A DNA stretch of 64,000 nucleotides, from the NCBI RefSeq assembly GCF_024223415.1, contig NZ_CP100500.1; one strand, written 5' to 3'. The notes beneath the pieces were generated by a model, which was not told the origin of the DNA, ran no database searches, and worked only from the letters and a program-made list of their open reading frames with translations. Position 1 is the first letter of the stretch. Each line of letters begins with the position of its first letter. Below are positions 5,315 to 31,502 of the stretch, piece after piece. The translations under genes were made by a program, and so were the position numbers. This DNA comes from Escherichia coli (GTDB lineage: Bacteria > Pseudomonadota > Gammaproteobacteria > Enterobacterales > Enterobacteriaceae).

Positions 5315-5682
5315 AGCGCGGATTTACCTTGCTGGAAGTGATGCTCGCACTGGCGATTTTTGCGCTGGCTGCCACGGCGGTGTTACAGATTGCCAGCGGT
5401 GCGCTGAGTAATCAGCACGTTCTTGAGGAGAAAACGGTAGCAGGCTGGGTGGCTGAAAACCAGACCGCGCTGCTCTACCTGATGACCCGTGAACAACGGG
5501 CGGTCAGGCATCAGGGCGAGAGCGACATGGCAGGAAACCGCTGGTACTGGCGAACCACACCGCTGAATACAGGTAACGCGCTGCTCCAGGCGGTGGATAT
5601 TGAAGTCAGCCGTCACGAAGACTTTTCGTCGGTAATTCAGTCACGACGCGCCTGGTTTAGCGCCGTGGGAGGCCAACAGTGA
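5311..5682 (+). CDS. gspI: Minor pseudopilin GspI
   Basis: N-terminal KRGFTLLEVMLALAIFALA prepilin motif; 123 aa; overlaps neighbours by 4 nt. Confidence 0.82.
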   Translation: MKRGFTLLEVMLALAIFALAATAVLQIASGALSNQHVLEEKTVAGWVAENQTALLYLMTREQRAVRHQGESDMAGNRWYWRTTPLNTGNALLQAVDIEVSRHEDFSSVIQSRRAWFSAVGGQQ

Positions 5683-6284
5683 GAAGGGCTCGCGCTGGTT
5701 TCACGTTACTGGAAATGCTGGTGGCAATTGCCATTTTTGCCTCGCTGGCACTGATGGCGCAGCAGGTGACTAACGGCGTCACGCGCGTGAATAGCGCCGT
5801 CACCGGACACGATCAAAAACTAAACCTCATGCAGCAAACGATGAGTTTTCTGACCCACGATCTGACCCAAATGATGCCGCGTCCGGTAAGAGGCGATCAG
5901 GGCCAGCGTGAATCAGCGTTACTGGCGGGCGCTGGCGTGCTGGCGTCTGAGAGTGAAGGAATGCGCTTTGTACGCGGCGGCGTGGTTAATCCGTTGATGC
6001 GTCTGCCGCGCAGTAATCTGCTCACCGTCGGTTACCGCATTCATGACGGTTATCTCGAACGGTTAGCCTGGCCGCTGACCGACGCAGCAGGCAGCGTGAA
6101 GCCAACAACGCAAAAGTTGATTCCGGCGGATTCGCTCCGTTTGCAGTTCTACGACGGCACACGCTGGCAGGAGAGCTGGTCATCACTTCAGGCGATCCCA
6201 GTGGCGGTACGCATGACCCTGCACTCGCCGCAATGGGGCGAGATTGAACGCATCTGGTTGTTACGCGGGCCGCAATTATCATGA
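5679..6284 (+). CDS. gspJ: Minor pseudopilin GspJ
   Basis: N-terminal AGFTLLEMLVAIAIFASLAL prepilin motif; 201 aa. Confidence 0.82.
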   Translation: MRRARAGFTLLEMLVAIAIFASLALMAQQVTNGVTRVNSAVTGHDQKLNLMQQTMSFLTHDLTQMMPRPVRGDQGQRESALLAGAGVLASESEGMRFVRGGVVNPLMRLPRSNLLTVGYRIHDGYLERLAWPLTDAAGSVKPTTQKLIPADSLRLQFYDGTRWQESWSSLQAIPVAVRMTLHSPQWGEIERIWLLRGPQLS

Positions 6285-9326: not shown

Positions 9327-10200
9327 TCAGAGATCTTCGTCTTTCCGGAGACTTCGGATGAATTCAGCCGGAGTCATGTCATTTAATGATGAATGCGTCC
9401 TTTCATGATTGTATTCCCTGCGCCAGCTGTCGAGTTTGTCCTGCGCATCTTCCAGTGACAGGAACCAGTGAATGTTCAGACACTCATCCCGTAGACTGCC
9501 GTTAAATGATTCAATAAACGGGTTATCTGTCGGCTTCCCGGGGCGCGAGAAGTCCATGGTCACTCCGTGTTCATACGCCCATTTATCCAGACTTTTTGAG
9601 ATAAACTCGCTGCCGTTATCTGTCTGAATACGTACCGGCAGGCGCTTACCCGGCACCCGCAACCCTTCCATCACACCGACCACATCCTCGCCTTTCAGCG
9701 ACTTTCCGGCATGGATCGCCAGACACTCCCGACTAAAATTATCGACTACAGTCAGCGCCCGGAAACGCCGTCCGTTAAACAGATTATCCGACACGAAATC
9801 CATATTCCAGCACTGATCGACACCGGTCAGGATGGGACGCTGTTGGCGATGTGCTGCACTGACATGCCTGCACGGACGTTTTCTCCGCAGGTTAAGTCCT
9901 TCCAGACAATAAATCCGGTGTGTTTTCTTGTGGTTAACAGGCCAGCCTTCCTGCCGTAACTGGATATGAATACGCGGGCAACCGTAGCGGATCCGGGTTT
10001 CCGCTATCTCCCTGATGCGCAGGGTTATCGCCCGATCATCTCGCCGACTCTGCCAGTGGTAAACGGTTCTGCTCTGTATCAGCAGTCCACATCCCCGTCG
10101 GACACTGATACGGTAAGCTTCCCGCAGAAAATGTACCGCCTGACGCTTCTGAGCCGGCCTCAGAACTTTTGTTTCAGTACCTCCTGCAACATCTCCTTAT
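9327..10200 (-). pseudogene. IS3-family transposase OrfB (DDE integrase core), disrupted by a frameshift near 9960
   Basis: Manual translation: one frame gives ...ITLRIREIAETRIRYGCPRIHIQ then stops; a second frame resumes LRQEGWPVNHKKTHRIYCLEGLNLRRKRP...MDFVSDNLFNGRRFRALTVVDNFSRE...TDNGSEF...; continuity needs a 1-nt shift. Confidence 0.65.
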
Positions 10201-25418: not shown

Positions 25419-27614
25419 ATGAGCATTCTCTCCATCCACGGCGTTCGCAGTTATCAGGGCGAAAGGCCAGTGGAGTTCGACTTGAGTAAGTATGTCACTC
25501 TTATCTATGGACAAAACGGCTCAGGAAAATCAACCGTTTCTGGTTACTTTTATAAGCATGGTCGTCCAGATTACAGCCAGTGCAGCCTGCGACCTCCACT
25601 GGATATGAACTACCTGGTGTTTAATCAGGAGTATGTAGACGATATTTTCAGCCAACCTTCTCAGCCGGGCATTTTCACTTTAAATAGTGAAAATGCAGAA
25701 ATTAAAACTGAAATAGATGCTCTGGAAGCGGAGAGTAAAGTTTTGTTTGCCCGGCGTGATGCTTTGGACGTGCAAAAACGCGACGTTGAGGGCATGGAAG
25801 AAAGTATTAAAAATGGCTCCGCAAAACAGATTTATAGTTCTACCGCAGAAATCAGAAAAACAGATTTATGGGATTTGATGTCTGGAACTAAACAGACCGA
25901 CAAACTTTTTCAGACCATCCTTGAACACACTGAAGTCGAAGATACTTCGACGCAGGAATTAACCGAAGAACTACACCGACTTGAAGCCAGTAAAGGCAAC
26001 CCTTACGCTTTGCTCGAAGCATTGCCAGCATCCCCTTTGAATGACAATGATATTGCGCTATTGATGCAACCTCTTATTCCAGCAGGTGATAGCCGTCTTG
26101 CTGCCGCAATTAACCAATTGGGCAACATTGACTGGGTGAGGAATGGACAGCAGTGGCTGAGTGATGACATTTGCCCATTTTGTCAAACGCCGATAGATGC
26201 CCGGCAACTTCAACAGGAAATCACTGCCCTTTTTGATACCTCATGGGAAGCTGCGATGGACCAGTTGCGGGAACTTCAGGCGCGATATCAATTCTGGCAC
26301 GATAAACCCGAACATATGCGGCAGTTAATAAAAACGTGTCCGTTAGTTGATCAGGAACATCCTGTTTATCTCTATCTACTTGAACTGGAGCAGGCGTATC
26401 AAAGAAATAAATTGCATATCGATGAGAAATTGACATCACCCTCTGCGTCGATTGCTGTTGAGGATCTTTCTGCTCTGGCTGGCAATGTCTCTGTGCAGAT
26501 AGCCAGTATTAATACAATAATAAGCGAACATAACCGAAAGGCTGAAAATTATCAGACTGAACGGGTTAGACTGAAACAGAGACTACTCAGTCATATCCGA
26601 AAACTGGCTACCGATACGATAATTAACCATGATGAACAACTAGCAGAACTTGCTGAAAAATTGGCAAAATTAACGGTGTCTCGGGATGAAATTACGGCCC
26701 AGCTTGATACGCTGAACGCAATTATTCGCGGTAAATCCAGCCTGATCGTCAATACGCAGGAAACGATTGAACGTATTAATCACAGCTTGGATAGCCTTGG
26801 AATCACTGGATTCCGCATTGCTCCCTATGACGATCGGGATGATTATCGTCTGGTGAGGGAAGGTGAGAACAGCGATACGCCTGTTTTTAGTAGTCTGAGT
26901 GAAGGGGAAAAGACGCTGATTGCTTTTCTCTATTTTCTGGAGACTTGCACAGGGAGAAAAAGTCGTGATGACAATGACCAACGAAAACGTTTAATTGTCA
27001 TTGATGATCCTATATCCAGCCTGTCGCAAAACTATGTTTTTGAAATAGCATCGTTGATCCAGCATCAGGTTATACGTGCCAGAATTGGTGAGAAAGTGAT
27101 TATTCTGACGCACAGCCTGTTTTTCTTTCAGGAGTTACTGCTTTCTGCGGAACGGAAGAAAAGGGCAGCGGGTTCTTGCCCACCAGAATGGACGCTTTAT
27201 CGGGTATCCAAATCCTTACATAGTTCTGCTTCCCTTGTTTCCGAAAAAGAATTACTGAACGACTATCAGGCACTCTGGTATGTCTTACGCCACGCCCAAA
27301 AAGATGACATTGCCAGTGTGGTGATCCCAAATACGATGCGGCAAATCCTTGAATACTATTTTGGTTTTTCGGGGAAAAGTGAGACGCTTCACCGGGCGCT
27401 TGAAACACTGGCGAGCGGGCCTGAAGGTGAACCTGGTTTCCGTATATTTGCTCGTTATCTAAATCGACATTCTCACCAGGATGCCCGCAATATCTCTCTT
27501 CATGAGGGGGCTTCGGTTGAACGCTATCTTACCTGGTTTAAGAAAGTATTCGAGGCGGCAAAGGATGAAGAGCATTACACATCAATGATGGAAAAGACGA
27601 CACAAACGACCTGA
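25419..27614 (+). CDS. ABC-type (SMC/RecF-like) ATPase, candidate RloC/PrrC-like anticodon-nuclease family defence protein
   Basis: Walker A GQNGSGKST at N-terminus, Walker B/D-loop LIVIDDPISSLS and H-loop ILTHS ~500 aa later, CPFC (CxxC) in the intervening predicted coiled coil, ~170-aa C-terminal domain. Confidence 0.45.
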   Translation: MSILSIHGVRSYQGERPVEFDLSKYVTLIYGQNGSGKSTVSGYFYKHGRPDYSQCSLRPPLDMNYLVFNQEYVDDIFSQPSQPGIFTLNSENAEIKTEIDALEAESKVLFARRDALDVQKRDVEGMEESIKNGSAKQIYSSTAEIRKTDLWDLMSGTKQTDKLFQTILEHTEVEDTSTQELTEELHRLEASKGNPYALLEALPASPLNDNDIALLMQPLIPAGDSRLAAAINQLGNIDWVRNGQQWLSDDICPFCQTPIDARQLQQEITALFDTSWEAAMDQLRELQARYQFWHDKPEHMRQLIKTCPLVDQEHPVYLYLLELEQAYQRNKLHIDEKLTSPSASIAVEDLSALAGNVSVQIASINTIISEHNRKAENYQTERVRLKQRLLSHIRKLATDTIINHDEQLAELAEKLAKLTVSRDEITAQLDTLNAIIRGKSSLIVNTQETIERINHSLDSLGITGFRIAPYDDRDDYRLVREGENSDTPVFSSLSEGEKTLIAFLYFLETCTGRKSRDDNDQRKRLIVIDDPISSLSQNYVFEIASLIQHQVIRARIGEKVIILTHSLFFFQELLLSAERKKRAAGSCPPEWTLYRVSKSLHSSASLVSEKELLNDYQALWYVLRHAQKDDIASVVIPNTMRQILEYYFGFSGKSETLHRALETLASGPEGEPGFRIFARYLNRHSHQDARNISLHEGASVERYLTWFKKVFEAAKDEEHYTSMMEKTTQTT

Positions 27615-29132
27615 TTAACAACAGAAGAGGACCATCACCCCGGGATTAACCGTTAGCAGTTCGGCAAAGAGCGCATGTGCTGGCACACGTGCTCCCAGCG
27701 ACCAAAACGGAAACGCAGATACTGGTGAACCAGCACAGTTTTCTGTTTCATACCGGGCTCCTTTCTTTCGACGCCGACAAGCTGTCGGCGAGCCCCGTAC
27801 ACCTCGTACGAGCGTGACTATCGTGTAGAGGCTAAGGATCCCGGGGGATGGCTTCCGCTATCGTAGGCGATTTCATTTGATGATTCAATCTTTGCTTTGG
27901 ATAACAATTAATTGAGATGGTCGTATTTTAGTATTAGCACTGTATGTCTTAGCTATAGTGCTGCTGAAATGACCAATTCGGGAACCGTGATGGTTTCCTG
28001 GAAACTCTCTTGCTTATTTTACGATGCTGGCCGATTATCACAAAACGTTGCTTAAACGCTGATTGGATATGGTGCTTTGTGGCAGTCATTCGCTTGTCTG
28101 ACGTTGCCATGGCTTACATTTGATGTAGCCAATGTAGAAGCCGCTTGGTGAATTGTTCTATGACATGGTCTACTACTTCGTTGTGGAAAATGAAGATGCG
28201 GTACCGGGTATGTACCATTGATGGTGAGAGGCTTATCGACGAATGGACCGTACGATATTGCTTGGCTGGAAAGGTGTGTGAAGCATTGTAGATTTACATT
28301 CACAAAATCGCGAGAAAATCTACAAACAACTCTATTTCCAGAAAAATGAGTTTCCCCTTTCTGCGCCAGAAATAAAGGCGTAATCTCCCTCCTGCACTAT
28401 GTTGTCGTGGACAACTCCCTTGCTTCATGGTCTGCAAGAAGCCCCTGATTTATCAGGATGACCAGCCCTTTCTACCGGTACGACCTCCGCAATACCGGAA
28501 CGCGAAAGCGTTTGAGGCTAAGAGTACATACACATGAACGGCTCCATCGTCATCGCTTAACGGCAACAGCCTTCACCGGCTGAACGGCCTCTCTTTGCCG
28601 GAATTTTCCTGGCCCACTTATACCCTGCTGATAACCAGCGCCTTTTTACATGACGGGCTGCGGCCTGCATTGCCGAAGGCTTTGCTGCCGCGTGACCGTC
28701 ATCCTGCACCAGAGTGTTAATTTTCAGACCCTGCGCCAGACCAGGGCGTCAGTCGCTCACGCGCAGTGAGAGACTGACGCCCGCAGAAATTTCCATCTGC
28801 ACCAGTCATATCAACTGTTCCAGCCACAGGCGAGCTTCTGACGTCGCTTTTCAGCATTTATCTCAACCATTCATTCACAAAAGGAGAACATGAGCCAGTA
28901 CCGGAGGAGGACCACCAGGACGGTCCGGGGGATGACCAGCTCACGCTGGCGGCTGCTCTGAGAGCACAACCGATACCCCGCAAAACCTCAACAGCCGTCG
29001 CCCCGGCGCTCAGGTACTGCTCGCAGCCCCGACAAAAATCAGGGGCTATCGGCCTACGCGCCGGGGAAAGCTGTATCCGTTGTTTGTTGTGGTTTTGTGA
29101 AAATCAGGAGCGAGAGAAGAGGAAAACGTAAA

Positions 29133-30014
29133 ATGGGTATGCTGGAAAGAGAGATGAAAAACCTGGCGCGGCAGGCTGGCGGGTCGCACAAGACTGTCCA
29201 TGACCGTATCGCCATGGCAGGACGTTTCTGCGAACGCCTGATGGAACTGAACGTTCAGATACGCTATGTCCACCATTTAAAGGCGAAGCATATTGAGGCG
29301 TATATTCAGATGCGGCTGGCGCAGGGGATTCAGAAAAATACGCTGCATAACGAAACGGCGGCTATCCGTAAAATCCTGACGCAGGCCGGGCGCGAAAAGC
29401 TGGCGCAGAGTGAACGGATATCGAATAAATCGCTGGGGCTGGCTGGCGTATCCCGCAATGGTACGCGGAAAGCCATCACGCCGGAATATTATCAACAGAT
29501 GGCAGAGGCTGCCCGGCTGAAAGATGCGGGGCTGGCGGCGGCGCTGGAACTGACGCGGCTGATGGGGCTACGCTCTCAGGAGGCAGTACGCTGTTCCGGT
29601 TCGCTGAAAACCTGGCGCGAAGCACTGGAGAAAGGTGATACCCGGCTAACCGTGGTACTCGGTACCAAAGGTGGACGGCCCCGTGACACGATTATTCAGG
29701 ATACTGGCGCAGTTAAACAGGCGCTGGATAAGGCCATCGTGGTGGCAGAACGGCGCAACGGCAGGCTGATTGATGCGGCGAGCCTTAAACAGGCAATGAA
29801 ATACTGGCGCAACCAGACTTTGCGTATGGGGCTGACGGGCAAATACTCCCCGCACTCACTGCGCTACGCCTGGGCGCAGGACGATATCTGCCGGTATCTG
29901 GCGCAGGGGTTCAGCGAAAAAGAAGCGCTGGCGATGGTGGCAATGGACCTAGGGCATGGCGACGGGCGTGGTCGCTGGGTGAAGCAGGTGTATGCACGGA
30001 ATGATGAAGCGTGA
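29133..30014 (+). CDS. Small tyrosine recombinase-like protein (ORF track start 29097 is GTG)
   Basis: C-terminal catalytic-like residues: ...GLRSQE..., TVVLGTKGGRPRD, HSLRYAWAQ (HxLR), MDLGHGDGRGRWVKQVYAR (LGH...Y); SD-like gaggaaaa upstream of ATG 29133. Confidence 0.5.
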   Translation: MGMLEREMKNLARQAGGSHKTVHDRIAMAGRFCERLMELNVQIRYVHHLKAKHIEAYIQMRLAQGIQKNTLHNETAAIRKILTQAGREKLAQSERISNKSLGLAGVSRNGTRKAITPEYYQQMAEAARLKDAGLAAALELTRLMGLRSQEAVRCSGSLKTWREALEKGDTRLTVVLGTKGGRPRDTIIQDTGAVKQALDKAIVVAERRNGRLIDAASLKQAMKYWRNQTLRMGLTGKYSPHSLRYAWAQDDICRYLAQGFSEKEALAMVAMDLGHGDGRGRWVKQVYARNDEA

Positions 30015-30195
30015 TTTTTTGCTGGCGCAGCGAAAGGAAAAAGGCCAAAGGGTAAAGGTGGGTTAAGGGTAACAGCTCCTTACCGGAAAGGGCCAAAGGG
30101 TTGGGACTGGCGCAGATCGACGTCTATCCACGGATATCTGGCGCAAATAAAAAGCAGATCCCTGATGCAGTGGATCTGCTTTCCGGCATTGTCCG

Positions 30196-31502
30196 TTAGC
30201 TGGCGCAGGCCGCCTGAATCTGCCTGTCATACCGATACGGCGGGATAAATTTCTGCCGACAGGCGTCGAGATAATCCGACCACCACTGCATCATCTGTGT
30301 GCGCTCGTCGAGGTGCTCCGCCTTGTGGATATACGCGGCACGAACGTGATTACGCTCCTGATGGCTCATTTGTCGCTCCACGGCGTCTTTTGACCAGCGC
30401 CCGGACTCGATCAGCGCACTACAGGCCATCGTGCGGAAACCGTGACCGCAAACATCTGCCTGTGTGTTGTAGCCCATAACCCGCAGTGCTTTGTTGATGG
30501 TGTTTTCGCTCATCGGCTTACGCGGATCGTGGTCGCCGGGAAACAGTAACTCACTACTGCCGGACAACAGTTTTAACTGTTTGAGTATTGTCACCGCCTG
30601 CGCTGACAACGGCACCAGATGCTGCATCTTCATCTTTGCGCCGCGATTTGAATAACGCACGCCCGGAATCGGCTCCCGCTCCGCCGGGATGGTCCACATT
30701 GCGCCATCCAGATTGATCTCCGTCCAGCGGGCAAAACGTAGCTCGCTGGAACGGATAAAGATCAGCAGATTAAGCTGTACCGCCAGACGGGTTAACAGCC
30801 TGCCGGAATAGCCTTCAATACGCTCCAGCATCTCCGGTATTTTCTCCAGCGGCAGGGCGGGGTAGTGGTTTTTGGGCGGCGGTGCGATAGCCCCGGTCAG
30901 ATCGTTCGCCGGATTGCTGTCGATTATCCCCTCCTGCACCGCGTAACGCATGATTGCCGTGGTGCGCTGCTGAATCCGTGCAGCGGTCTCCAGCGTACCT
31001 TTTCGTTCCGCCACCCGCAGCGGGATCAGCAGATCGGCAGTTTTCAAATCAGAGACCGGAATTTGCCGATCAGTGGAAAAACATGCAGCTCCAGCGAGCG
31101 CAGGACTTTGGCGGCATGGGCTTCATTCCAGCGGATATTGCCCGCTACCCACTTACGGGCGATATCTTCAAAGGTGTTGCCGCTTTTACGTGCAAACTTC
31201 TCCTGCTGTTTTTTCACGCCGGGATCGCTGCCTGCGCTCAATACCGAGCGGGCATCCTCGCGCAGCTTGCGGGCATTTGCCAGAGAAACGGCCGGGTAAG
31301 CACCAAACGCCAGCTTCTTCTCTTTACCGCCGAAGCGGTACTTGAGGTGCCAGAGTTTAGATCCGTTGGGCTTTATCAGCAGGTACAGACCCTGCGCATC
31401 GCTGAGTTTCCAGGATTTATCAAGCGGCTTTGCATTACGGATGGCGGTATCGGTGAGGGACATAGTGGGGCTCCATAGTTTATCGAACCGACGGGCCCCC
31501 AA
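30196..31502 (-). pseudogene. P4-type tyrosine integrase split by a frameshift near 31045-31060
   Basis: N-terminal ORF (31044..31502) ...LKYRFGGKEKKLAFGAYPAVSLANARKLR...VFPLIGK; C-terminal ORF (30196..31047) ...ADLLIPLRVAERKGTLETAARIQQR...HGFRTMACSALIESG...; the two pieces are in different frames. Confidence 0.8.

Follow-up and report, generated by a model that had tools for sequence, protein, structure and literature searches.

A conserved non-coding leader with a hairpin and an EFASI RNA before a PF12835 gene in Escherichia coli: a candidate mobilisation module

In the Escherichia coli contig NZ_CP100500.1 (assembly GCF_024223415.1) we looked at a stretch of 64,000 nucleotides of chromosomal DNA, called here the window, and within it at the segment 27615-29132, which lies between the gene of an RloC-like ATPase and the gene of a small protein with a tyrosine-recombinase fold and the Pfam domain PF12835. 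An earlier note on this DNA, made from its letters, had described the segment as 1.5 kb with no open reading frame (ORF) of 60 codons or more, only short spurious ORFs and a near-perfect palindrome, and had offered a decayed gene, a structured non-coding RNA or a recombination site as explanations. What the note missed is that the segment is a composite of the tail of an ATPase module, a lineage-specific spacer and a conserved leader, and that the conserved unit is the right-hand 840 bp only. As a whole it is 99.7-99.8% identical to 20 complete E. coli genomes, for example DSM 103246 (megablast), and RefSeq places no feature within it in any of the 20. A further 235 E. coli genomes align to query positions 679-1518 only (28293-29132), at ~77-94% identity, and a portion of the left section, 27615-27935, recurs in 11 other E. 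coli genomes, again directly 3' of the same ATPase gene. The parts of the segment and the main elements of the leader are:

27615-27860, ~250 bp: left part, tail of a PDC-S06/AAA_13 defence ATPase module with a convergent 32-codon ORF
27861-28292, ~430 bp, 42% G+C: middle part, lineage-specific spacer
28293-29132 (+), 840 bp: right part, conserved non-coding leader of the PF12835 gene
28400..28545 (+): degenerate STAXI-like element (RF01728), 18.2 bits, E 0.74, below the gathering score of 40.5
28744-28760 and 28766-28782 (+): arms of the hairpin, 17 nt each, 16 of 17 paired (94%), one G/A mismatch, 5-nt loop GCGCA
28890..29023 (+): EFASI RNA (RF02957), 112.7 bits against a gathering score of 51.2, model positions 1-133 of 133, 66% G+C
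29133..30014 (+): PF12835 gene, the small recombinase of the earlier note, 293 amino acids, PF12834 (SAM-like N-terminal) 118.8 bits and PF12835 (Integrase_1) 196.6 bits

The conserved leader and its gene

The leader travels with the PF12835 gene and can be aligned across Escherichia, Tatumella, Mixta and Erwinia (alignment A2). In gene maps, most of the relatives examined have ~650-900 nt free of ORFs before the gene, and this stretch is shorter in the small Burkholderiales and Thiothrix plasmids. The order STAXI or STAXI-like element, hairpin, EFASI and PF12835 gene, all on one strand, is found at 17 related Enterobacterales loci, which are islands with a P4-type integrase (P4-int islands) and SPI-7-type plasmids. 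RefSeq calls some 'hypothetical proteins' in the homologous leaders (5353-5706 in locus L003, 4718-5140 in L004, 5387-5527 in L005 and 870-1181 in L027); they lie on either strand, overlap the hairpin or the EFASI region, are in some cases Arg-rich and look like annotation artefacts.

The palindrome at 28744..28782 was exactly confirmed, as a 17-bp stem with one mismatch, and the statement that it is not an intrinsic terminator also holds: no T-run lies 3' of the stem (sequence GCAGAAATTTCC) and the terminator scan made no call there, on which grounds this function was rejected. Folded as RNA the hairpin has an energy of -32.7 kcal/mol (z -6.3) and folded as DNA one of -20.3 kcal/mol (z -6.5), and in both cases 0 of 200 shuffles fold as well. 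Its pattern GCGTCAS..STGACGY occurs once in the 64-kb window, where 0.04 occurrences are expected. Among 12 distinct homologues 88.7% of the cells are paired and 10 of the 17 pairs show double changes; 0 of 500 shuffles reach these values, shifting the partner columns lowers the pairing to 32-48%, and RNAalifold finds no other strongly supported helix in the neighbourhood. The apical 5-6 bp change freely yet stay paired across the homologues, whereas the basal stem GCGTCAC(T)T/A(A)GTGACGC, generalised as GCGTCAS/STGACGC, is nearly invariant in sequence, the lineage of the window carrying the compensated variant GCGTCAG/CTGACGC.

The hairpin was found upstream of the gene at every Enterobacterales, Thiothrix and Burkholderiales locus examined, and also in the TAI island of E. 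coli O157:H7. In the window the distance from the hairpin to the ATG is ~350 nt (351-389 nt for the inverted repeat), and in distant plasmid settings the basal stem is located 270-470 nt upstream of genes with both PF12834 and PF12835: in a SPI-7-type plasmid of Pantoea and a Klebsiella plasmid (proteins 48-50% identical), in a Thiothrix plasmid (37% identical) and in two small Burkholderiales plasmids, from Caballeronia and Burkholderia (~31-36% identical). Because the basal sequence is invariant even though the proteins are only 31-50% identical, it can be read as a protein recognition site, and the PF12835 protein most likely has its cognate site in the hairpin, which is proposed here as the inverted repeat of an origin of transfer (oriT). 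In the AT-rich metagenomic locus L034, whose protein is 37% identical, positions 690-710 hold only the 3' half-site with its flank (AAGTGACGCAAC), after a direct AGTGAC repeat, and no complementary 5' arm is present upstream of this family member, which hints that the 3' arm and its flank may be the core recognition sequence.

The possibility of a structured non-coding RNA is borne out by the full-length EFASI in the Rfam scan and by the covariation of the hairpin itself. EFASI stands at the same place, at or above its gathering score, in the 17 related Enterobacterales loci, with 94-122 bits in chromosomal islands and 86-91 bits in the plasmid relatives from Pantoea and Klebsiella. In the window, 109 nt separate it from the start of the PF12835 gene and the STAXI-like match starts 490 nt upstream, so that EFASI lies downstream of a STAXI-like element and upstream of an integrase-like gene, a layout shared by the relatives. 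Both motifs reportedly originate from Weinberg et al. The Rfam text, as quoted in PMC12370729, explains the name as 'Enterobacteriaceae, Frequently Around STAXI and Integrases', places EFASI several hundred bp downstream of STAXI and upstream of integrase genes, and gives both as being of unknown function. In vesicles of Shiga toxin-producing E. coli (STEC), EFASI and STAXI RNA were detected by reverse-transcription quantitative PCR (RT-qPCR; PMC12370729).

The STAXI-like element scores below threshold in the window. Matches in the corresponding position and orientation reach 25-34 bits in the relatives L004, L013, L015 and L018 and 70-134 bits in the O157:H7 TAI island and the plasmid relatives from Pantoea and Klebsiella; this syntenic position and these graded scores, on which the assignment is based, suggest that 28400..28545 is a degenerate STAXI homologue. 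The Pantoea piersonii plasmid pGABEKP28_3 carries a second full STAXI just 3' of the PF12835 gene (L024 3943-4093 / L028). Behind this STAXI come a series of small genes and then a zincin-like metallopeptidase, DUF1281, an N6-methylase, a UvrD-type helicase and a TraI-domain protein. This gene content resembles a plasmid leading region and, speculatively, STAXI might act on transferred single-stranded DNA.

The product of the gene has the intact catalytic set of the tyrosine recombinases (RKHRH-Y), including a conserved nucleophilic Tyr as expected of a MOB_M-type relaxase, and R147, K179, H241, R244, H275 and Y287 do not vary among 15 members that share 31-50% identity. PF12835 is used by the AtollGen classifier as the signature for MpsA, the atypical tyrosine-recombinase-like (MOB_M) relaxase of SGI1 (PMC10484663). 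A 2026 preprint reports that no chromosomal relaxases are commoner in E. coli, Salmonella and Klebsiella than the MOB_M ones (MpsA, MobK and TcpM type), which usually bear the wrong label of integrase, lie beside an integrase in 96% of cases and occur alone or with the mating-pair formation system MPF_G (bioRxiv 10.64898/2026.01.13.699239). The family with PF12834 and PF12835 comprises 834 representatives of 50%-identity clusters at E<=1e-3, and the exact protein of the window is found on at least 1000 contigs. Its genes lie beside P4-type integrases at tRNA genes in chromosomal islands, in the SPI-7-type MPF_G plasmid of Pantoea, and on small plasmids whose typing, 'non-mobilizable', means that no relaxase was recognised on them. 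A sequence search of the PDB gave no match to the protein, a cluster-member lookup for the MOB_M seed accessions of bioRxiv 10.64898/2026.01.13.699239 showed none of them, and ten matches of 315-323 amino acids from an exhaustive HMMER search do not start like MpsA. We propose that the product of 29133..30014 is a MOB_M-type relaxase.

Smaller elements were also recognised in the leader and the gene:

28293..28319 (+): promoter-like TTTACA-N15-GAAAAT (TAAAAT in relatives), conserved in A2, at the very start of the leader
28361-28369 (+): fourth upstream copy of the 9-mer CTGCRCCAG
28654..28700 (+): invariant 47-nt block GGGCTGCGGCCTGCATTGCCGAAGGCTTTGCTGCCGCGTGACCGT, the most conserved sequence of the leader (invariant columns in A2 and A4)
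28704, 28731 and 28797, all (+), span 28704..28805: CTGCRCCAG copies bracketing the hairpin
~28819: degenerate fifth copy of the 9-mer, CTGTTCCAG
29001..29066 (+): inverted repeat CCCCGGCGCTCAGG / CCTACGCGCCGGGG, 14 nt, 86% complementary, both arms kept in most relatives
29316, 29400, 29704, 29898, 30022, 30107 and 30200 (-), span 29316..30208: seven CTGCRCCAG copies in the opposite orientation

The promoter-like sequence might, on slight grounds, be taken as the start of a transcript. It is overlapped by a perfect 10-bp inverted repeat, TTGTAGATTT/AAATCTACAA (28286-28295/28316-28325), which spans the junction of spacer and leader and is not conserved among the relatives. The 47-nt block shows no covariation because nothing varies there. 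At the other end of the leader, positions 29001-29014 (CCCCGGCGC...), part of the 3' strand of EFASI, are able to base-pair with the conserved GCGCCGGGG at 29053-29066, and this could be an alternative or terminal helix beside the start of the gene.

The 9-mer CTGCRCCAG is present in 19 copies in the window where 1.3 are expected (~15-fold), and 11 of the 19 fall within 28361-30208. The copies on the minus strand lie inside the PF12835 gene, in different reading frames, and just past it. Polar copies were noted in 28361-30208 of the window and in the loci L003, L004, L011-L013, L015, L017, L018 and L021; the polarity is strict in 8 of 8 tabulated relatives of the P4-int type, with the switch point at EFASI. 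Some relatives have arrays of the 9-mer, with a spacing of ~31 nt, between the gene and the integrase, and it is absent from the plasmid lineage with a full STAXI (L024, L025). The 9-mer may represent binding sites of an accessory protein, or a complementarity between leader and mRNA. As a target of the C4 and isrK antisense RNAs of the islands it was rejected, there being no complementarity. To our knowledge it is unlike Chi, KOPS or matS.

A mobilisation module and its alternatives

The leader and its gene are a real, interpretable element of an already known kind. We think it fairly probable that 28293-29132 and the gene form a mobilisation module made of an oriT hairpin, an EFASI RNA cofactor and a relaxase. 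This reading is based on the full-score EFASI, the covarying hairpin with its kept basal stem, the invariant catalytic set and the PF12835 signature, on the order, strand and spacing of the elements, which are like those of SGI1, on the MOB_M-like distribution of the family, and on the O157:H7 TAI island, in which the same three elements occur with no gene behind them. In strain EDL933 this island (L029 4992-5772) has a STAXI of 134 bits, the hairpin at 5395-5433 and an EFASI of 48.9 bits, near the threshold, in a ~1-kb ORF-free gap beside the urease genes; no PF12835 gene follows the triad, only IS66 debris. A triad without its gene fits a cis-acting site that is used in trans. The EFASI qPCR primer of PMC12370729 matches the TAI island copy.

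The course of events in such a module can be drawn by analogy with SGI1, so that MpsA homology, nicking, the role of the RNA and transfer are all inferred. A transcript would start near 28330 and run toward the gene through the STAXI-like element, the hairpin and EFASI. At the level of DNA, the hairpin region, with its basal GCGTCAC/GTGACGC and the flanking CTGCRCCAG copies, would be the origin of transfer, which the tyrosine-recombinase-fold protein would bind and nick via Tyr287. At the level of RNA, EFASI would be the counterpart of the core of sgm-sRNA, the small RNA needed in trans for SGI1 transfer. The mating pore would be provided by a helper conjugative element.

Several observations weigh against a mobilisation module. 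The TAI island may have lost its gene through the insertion of IS66 and need not be an oriT-only design. The SPI-7-type Pantoea plasmid also encodes a TraI-domain protein, which means that the PF12835 protein need not be the relaxase there, and the idea that it is the sole relaxase candidate on this MPF_G plasmid was rejected. According to PMC8152469, MpsA, MobK and TcpM have no arm- or core-binding domain, and MpsA, without a core-binding domain, needs MpsB; the protein of the window has a PF12834 domain fused at its N-terminal (118.8 bits), which could be a fused counterpart of MpsB. Its tie to characterised MOB_M relaxases, such as MpsA (AAK02039.1), MobK (AAS55463.1) and TcpM (ABC96296.1), is an indirect one, through PF12835 as the AtollGen signature for MpsA. 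No sequence or Rfam similarity to the oriT of SGI1 was established, its IR1 CGCGCAC/GTGCGCG resembling the hairpin loosely. A 48-nt SGI1 primer arm and the 123-nt oriT_SGI1, both taken as optically recognised text from supplements, had no match in E. coli genomes, and a doubly confirmed SGI1 21-mer had none in metagenome contigs. A simple sigma-70 scan called no promoter in the leader; the sequence at 28293..28319 went uncalled because its spacer is 15 nt. The hairpin is absent upstream of four more distant metagenomic family members (33-37% identity), and the suggestion that it is universal to PF12835 proteins was rejected for this reason. Finally, the G-U pairs of the hairpin and the family-level RNA model of EFASI fit a purely regulatory RNA leader equally well.

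Such a leader would be a 5' untranslated region that controls read-through, processing or translation in cis, the 840-bp block having no function as DNA. All of its elements are co-directional with the gene and directly upstream of it, EFASI is modelled as an RNA, five cells of the hairpin are G-U on the plus strand, the 3' strand of EFASI can pair alternatively with the sequence downstream, and the CUGCRCCAG copies of the leader have their complement in the CUGGCGCAG copies of the mRNA. We nevertheless hold this explanation to be rather unlikely, since in the O157 TAI island the three elements are retained though the gene is absent, the basal stem does not vary in sequence across orders although a helix acting purely as RNA could covary, as the apical part does, and the analogous RNA of SGI1 is dispensable for mpsAB expression (PMC9299015). 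Another option keeps the DNA-level function and makes the protein a true site-specific recombinase with the hairpin as its site, for example for the resolution of multimers of the excised island or plasmid, or as a folded single strand like the attC sites of integrons and the attP of CTX. The full catalytic set and the core-binding-like domain agree with it, as do the presence of one palindromic site per element, as a resolution site would have, the mismatch or bulge that is conserved inside the hairpin where its basal and apical stems meet, much as in folded attC sites, and the Pantoea relative, which has another relaxase candidate. However, the arms GCGTCACTT/AAGTGACGC are 11-25 self-complementary nt apart, in contrast to the 6-8-bp central region of classical core sites, so the hairpin does not have the build of dif, loxP or an attP core (arms of ~11-13 bp around a centre of 6-8 bp); PF12835 is attributed to the MpsA relaxase in the literature, and the family is distributed as reported for MOB_M; and the Caballeronia plasmid carries a separate tyrosine recombinase. 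We consider a true recombinase unlikely. The recombination site of the earlier note is thus retained in part: the hairpin is probably the cognate site of the adjacent tyrosine-recombinase-fold protein, but the literature on the family favours nicking at an oriT over recombination.

Two further explanations are essentially excluded. A transcription terminator, or an RNA-processing signal, for the upstream genes would agree with the strong G+C-rich stem-loop, and terminator-like inverted repeats do shape the primary transcript of SGI1; it is very improbable given that a T-run is lacking after the stem in the relatives as well, that the hairpin is found 450 nt inside conserved non-coding DNA and not where a gene ends, and that its basal sequence is invariant. 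One or several decayed protein-coding genes, with the hairpin as an incidental feature, would explain the unusual length of the ORF-poor stretch and the 'hypothetical proteins' annotated in the homologous block of some genomes, and the earlier note had proposed a search for pseudogene remnants. With tblastn, 25 neighbouring or annotated proteins of the relatives left no remnant in 27400-29300. The only matches, to an Arg-rich ORF and an antisense ORF, reflect DNA homology, because both are annotated inside the homologous leader. The leader is ORF-free in most relatives examined, intact islands included, and the block holds a full-score RNA family and a covarying helix; the two longest ORFs of the segment have no Pfam match. 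Decay of a gene is therefore barely credible, and for 28293-29132 it is essentially refuted.

Returning to the mobilisation module, a wider reading can be put forward tentatively, and we hold it to be rather doubtful. In it, EFASI and STAXI would serve as nucleic-acid cofactors to relaxases of the tyrosine-recombinase type, which form a very large and mis-annotated family, and would not be free-standing regulatory small RNAs, and the RNA-assisted relaxosome, seen once in SGI1, would be the rule for the commonest chromosomal mobilisation system of the Enterobacterales. The GCGTCAC/GTGACGC hairpin would be the recognition site in the Enterobacterales, Thiothrix and Burkholderiales members examined, the four distant members being without it, and in the P4-int lineage the polar CTGCRCCAG arrays would converge on this site from both sides, as KOPS do on dif. 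How most islands of E. coli, Salmonella and Klebsiella, among them defence and pathogenicity islands, move between cells has long been unclear. If the leader and its gene are indeed a mobilisation module, the unannotated ~800 bp before the gene of an 'integrase domain-containing protein' would be the origin of transfer of these islands together with its RNA cofactor, the orphan Rfam motifs STAXI and EFASI would gain a concrete and testable function, and the combination of hairpin, EFASI and PF12835 gene would be a simple annotation marker for mobilisable islands. The practical meaning for the window is modest, as this copy sits in a decaying island with a frameshifted integrase.

The ATPase module, the spacer and the integrase

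The remaining features of the segment and its flanks are:

25419..27614 (+): flanking RloC-like gene, AAA_13 ATPase, Pfam 349 bits, PADLOC PDC-S06 804 bits
27653..27751 (-), read from 27751 to 27653: 32-codon ORF MKQKTVLVHQYLRFRFGRWEHVCQHMRSLPNC with an AAGGAG Shine-Dalgarno sequence, converging on the ATPase gene, unannotated
27772..27790: small hairpin CGCCGAC-AAGCT-GTCGGCG, upstream of the 32-codon ORF on the minus strand
28052..28303 (-): mechanically called 83-amino-acid ORF with a GTG start, within the spacer, no Pfam match
30196..31502 (-): P4-type tyrosine integrase, frameshifted, two ORFs here; at the identical locus RefSeq has 'tyrosine-type recombinase/integrase, frameshifted'

The ATPase matches PDC-S06, a candidate single-gene defence system of PADLOC. 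The ~190 nt directly 3' of its gene are kept, unannotated, behind related ATPase genes in E. coli NC101, a Rahnella plasmid, an IncHI1 plasmid and Serratia. Within them, the 32-codon ORF keeps its length, Shine-Dalgarno sequence and peptide pattern in E. coli NC101, the IncHI1 plasmid, the Rahnella plasmid, Serratia and Erwinia; its differences by codon position are 74, 67 and 139, the third being about twice the others. By tblastn its peptide is found on 135 plasmids, 4-kb ones included, often beside ATP-binding proteins and almost never annotated, and it has no Pfam, NCBIfam or PADLOC match. Based on the kept Shine-Dalgarno sequence and length, the third-position bias and the 135 plasmids, 27653-27751 (-) looks like a real small gene, separate from the hairpin of the leader, and the 'single-gene' PDC-S06 candidate might have its product as a small partner. 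The arms of the small hairpin at 27772..27790 vary among the homologues yet remain complementary (alignment A1, by eye), as GCCGAC/GTCGGC, GCCGGT/ACCGGC, GCCGGCG/CGCCGGC and CCGGC/GCCGG.

The spacer 27861-28292 is present only in the 20 near-identical E. coli genomes and has no homologue on plasmids. At its place, between the last cargo gene and the conserved block, the relatives hold isrK, a C4-type antisense RNA, a gene for a 153-amino-acid protein and an HTH_35 gene, sometimes with toxin-antitoxin genes such as HigA or MazEF, and tblastn found no trace of these proteins in the window. Since none of them is detectable there, the spacer appears as the scar of a replacement or deletion that removed isrK, C4, the 153-amino-acid hypothetical gene and HTH_35, and not as their decayed copy. 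The 83-amino-acid ORF is probably spurious, as it has no Pfam match and its DNA is restricted to the 20 genomes. The claims about coding capacity thus hold in part: an ORF of more than 60 codons does exist, though RefSeq annotates nothing in the segment, and this longer ORF is probably spurious, but the 32-codon ORF appears to be a real gene.

Beyond the PF12835 gene the frameshifted integrase is directly followed by a CP4-like island with DUF4942, cbtA/cbeA, radC, antirestriction, DUF932 and GTPase genes. This looks like tandem islands at 30196-31502 and beyond, the defence island being probably immobilised; its copy is regarded as decaying because the integration gene is frameshifted. The copy of the mobilisation module in the window is probably vestigial, a fossil, because the P4-type integrase is frameshifted and the upstream regulatory genes are gone. 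Elsewhere in the window, at 10025-10161 (+), lies the Hfq-binding small RNA isrN (RF01396, 72 bits).

Comparison with known systems

The mobilisation module of SGI1 consists of a promoter, a transcript of 650-700 nt toward mpsA, a GC-rich 125-bp oriT of inverted repeats, the core of sgm-sRNA and mpsA, all co-directional (PMC6414798, PMC9299015), and sgm-sRNA is essential in trans for SGI1 transfer and dispensable for mpsAB expression (PMC9299015). Both systems have a tyrosine-recombinase-fold protein with the PF12835 signature, a GC-rich inverted repeat some hundreds of nt before the gene (the distance is ~350 nt here, measured from the hairpin to the ATG, and ~290 nt in SGI1, from IR1 to mpsA) and, between this repeat and the gene, a co-directional structured RNA, EFASI occupying the position of sgm-sRNA. 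In both, the leader is non-coding or weakly coding and ~700-800 nt long, and the integrative island has its own, separate integrase; SGI1 likewise has a 9-bp inverted repeat adjoining mpsA, comparable with the repeat at 29001-29066. The likeness is one of layout, with no detectable sequence similarity shown. MpsA is without an N-terminal DNA-binding domain and works with a separate MpsB, whereas PF12834 is fused here. Three inverted repeats lie in the 125 bp of SGI1, and here there is one dominant 17-bp hairpin flanked by direct 9-mers. SGI1 carries traG, traN and traH and inserts at trmE, whereas here P4-type integrases at tRNA genes are found.

MobK of pIGRK is also a tyrosine-recombinase-like relaxase with a catalytic Tyr, and an oriT with inverted and direct repeats precedes its gene; MobK nicks supercoiled DNA (PMC8152469). 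Unlike the protein of the window, it is shorter and has no core-binding domain, and it needs a G-rich tract and has no known RNA component. With the Rfam descriptions the agreement is close, as EFASI has its full score and the described layout is exactly matched, but STAXI is here an 18-bit shadow and the hairpin between the two motifs is omitted by Rfam. The link of EFASI and STAXI to MOB_M relaxases and oriT is our own suggestion, and it was not found in PMC12370729 where EFASI is discussed. The MOB_M and 'oriT_rM' families of bioRxiv 10.64898/2026.01.13.699239 are similar in distribution to the family described here, which lies beside an integrase, occurs alone or with MPF_G and is usually labelled 'integrase'. 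In the same work the O157:H7 TAI islands are described as oriT-only hitchers whose oriT resembles that of the MOB_M integrative and conjugative element SGI-4, and it is the O157:H7 TAI island that holds the same triad of STAXI, hairpin and EFASI as the PF12835 loci.

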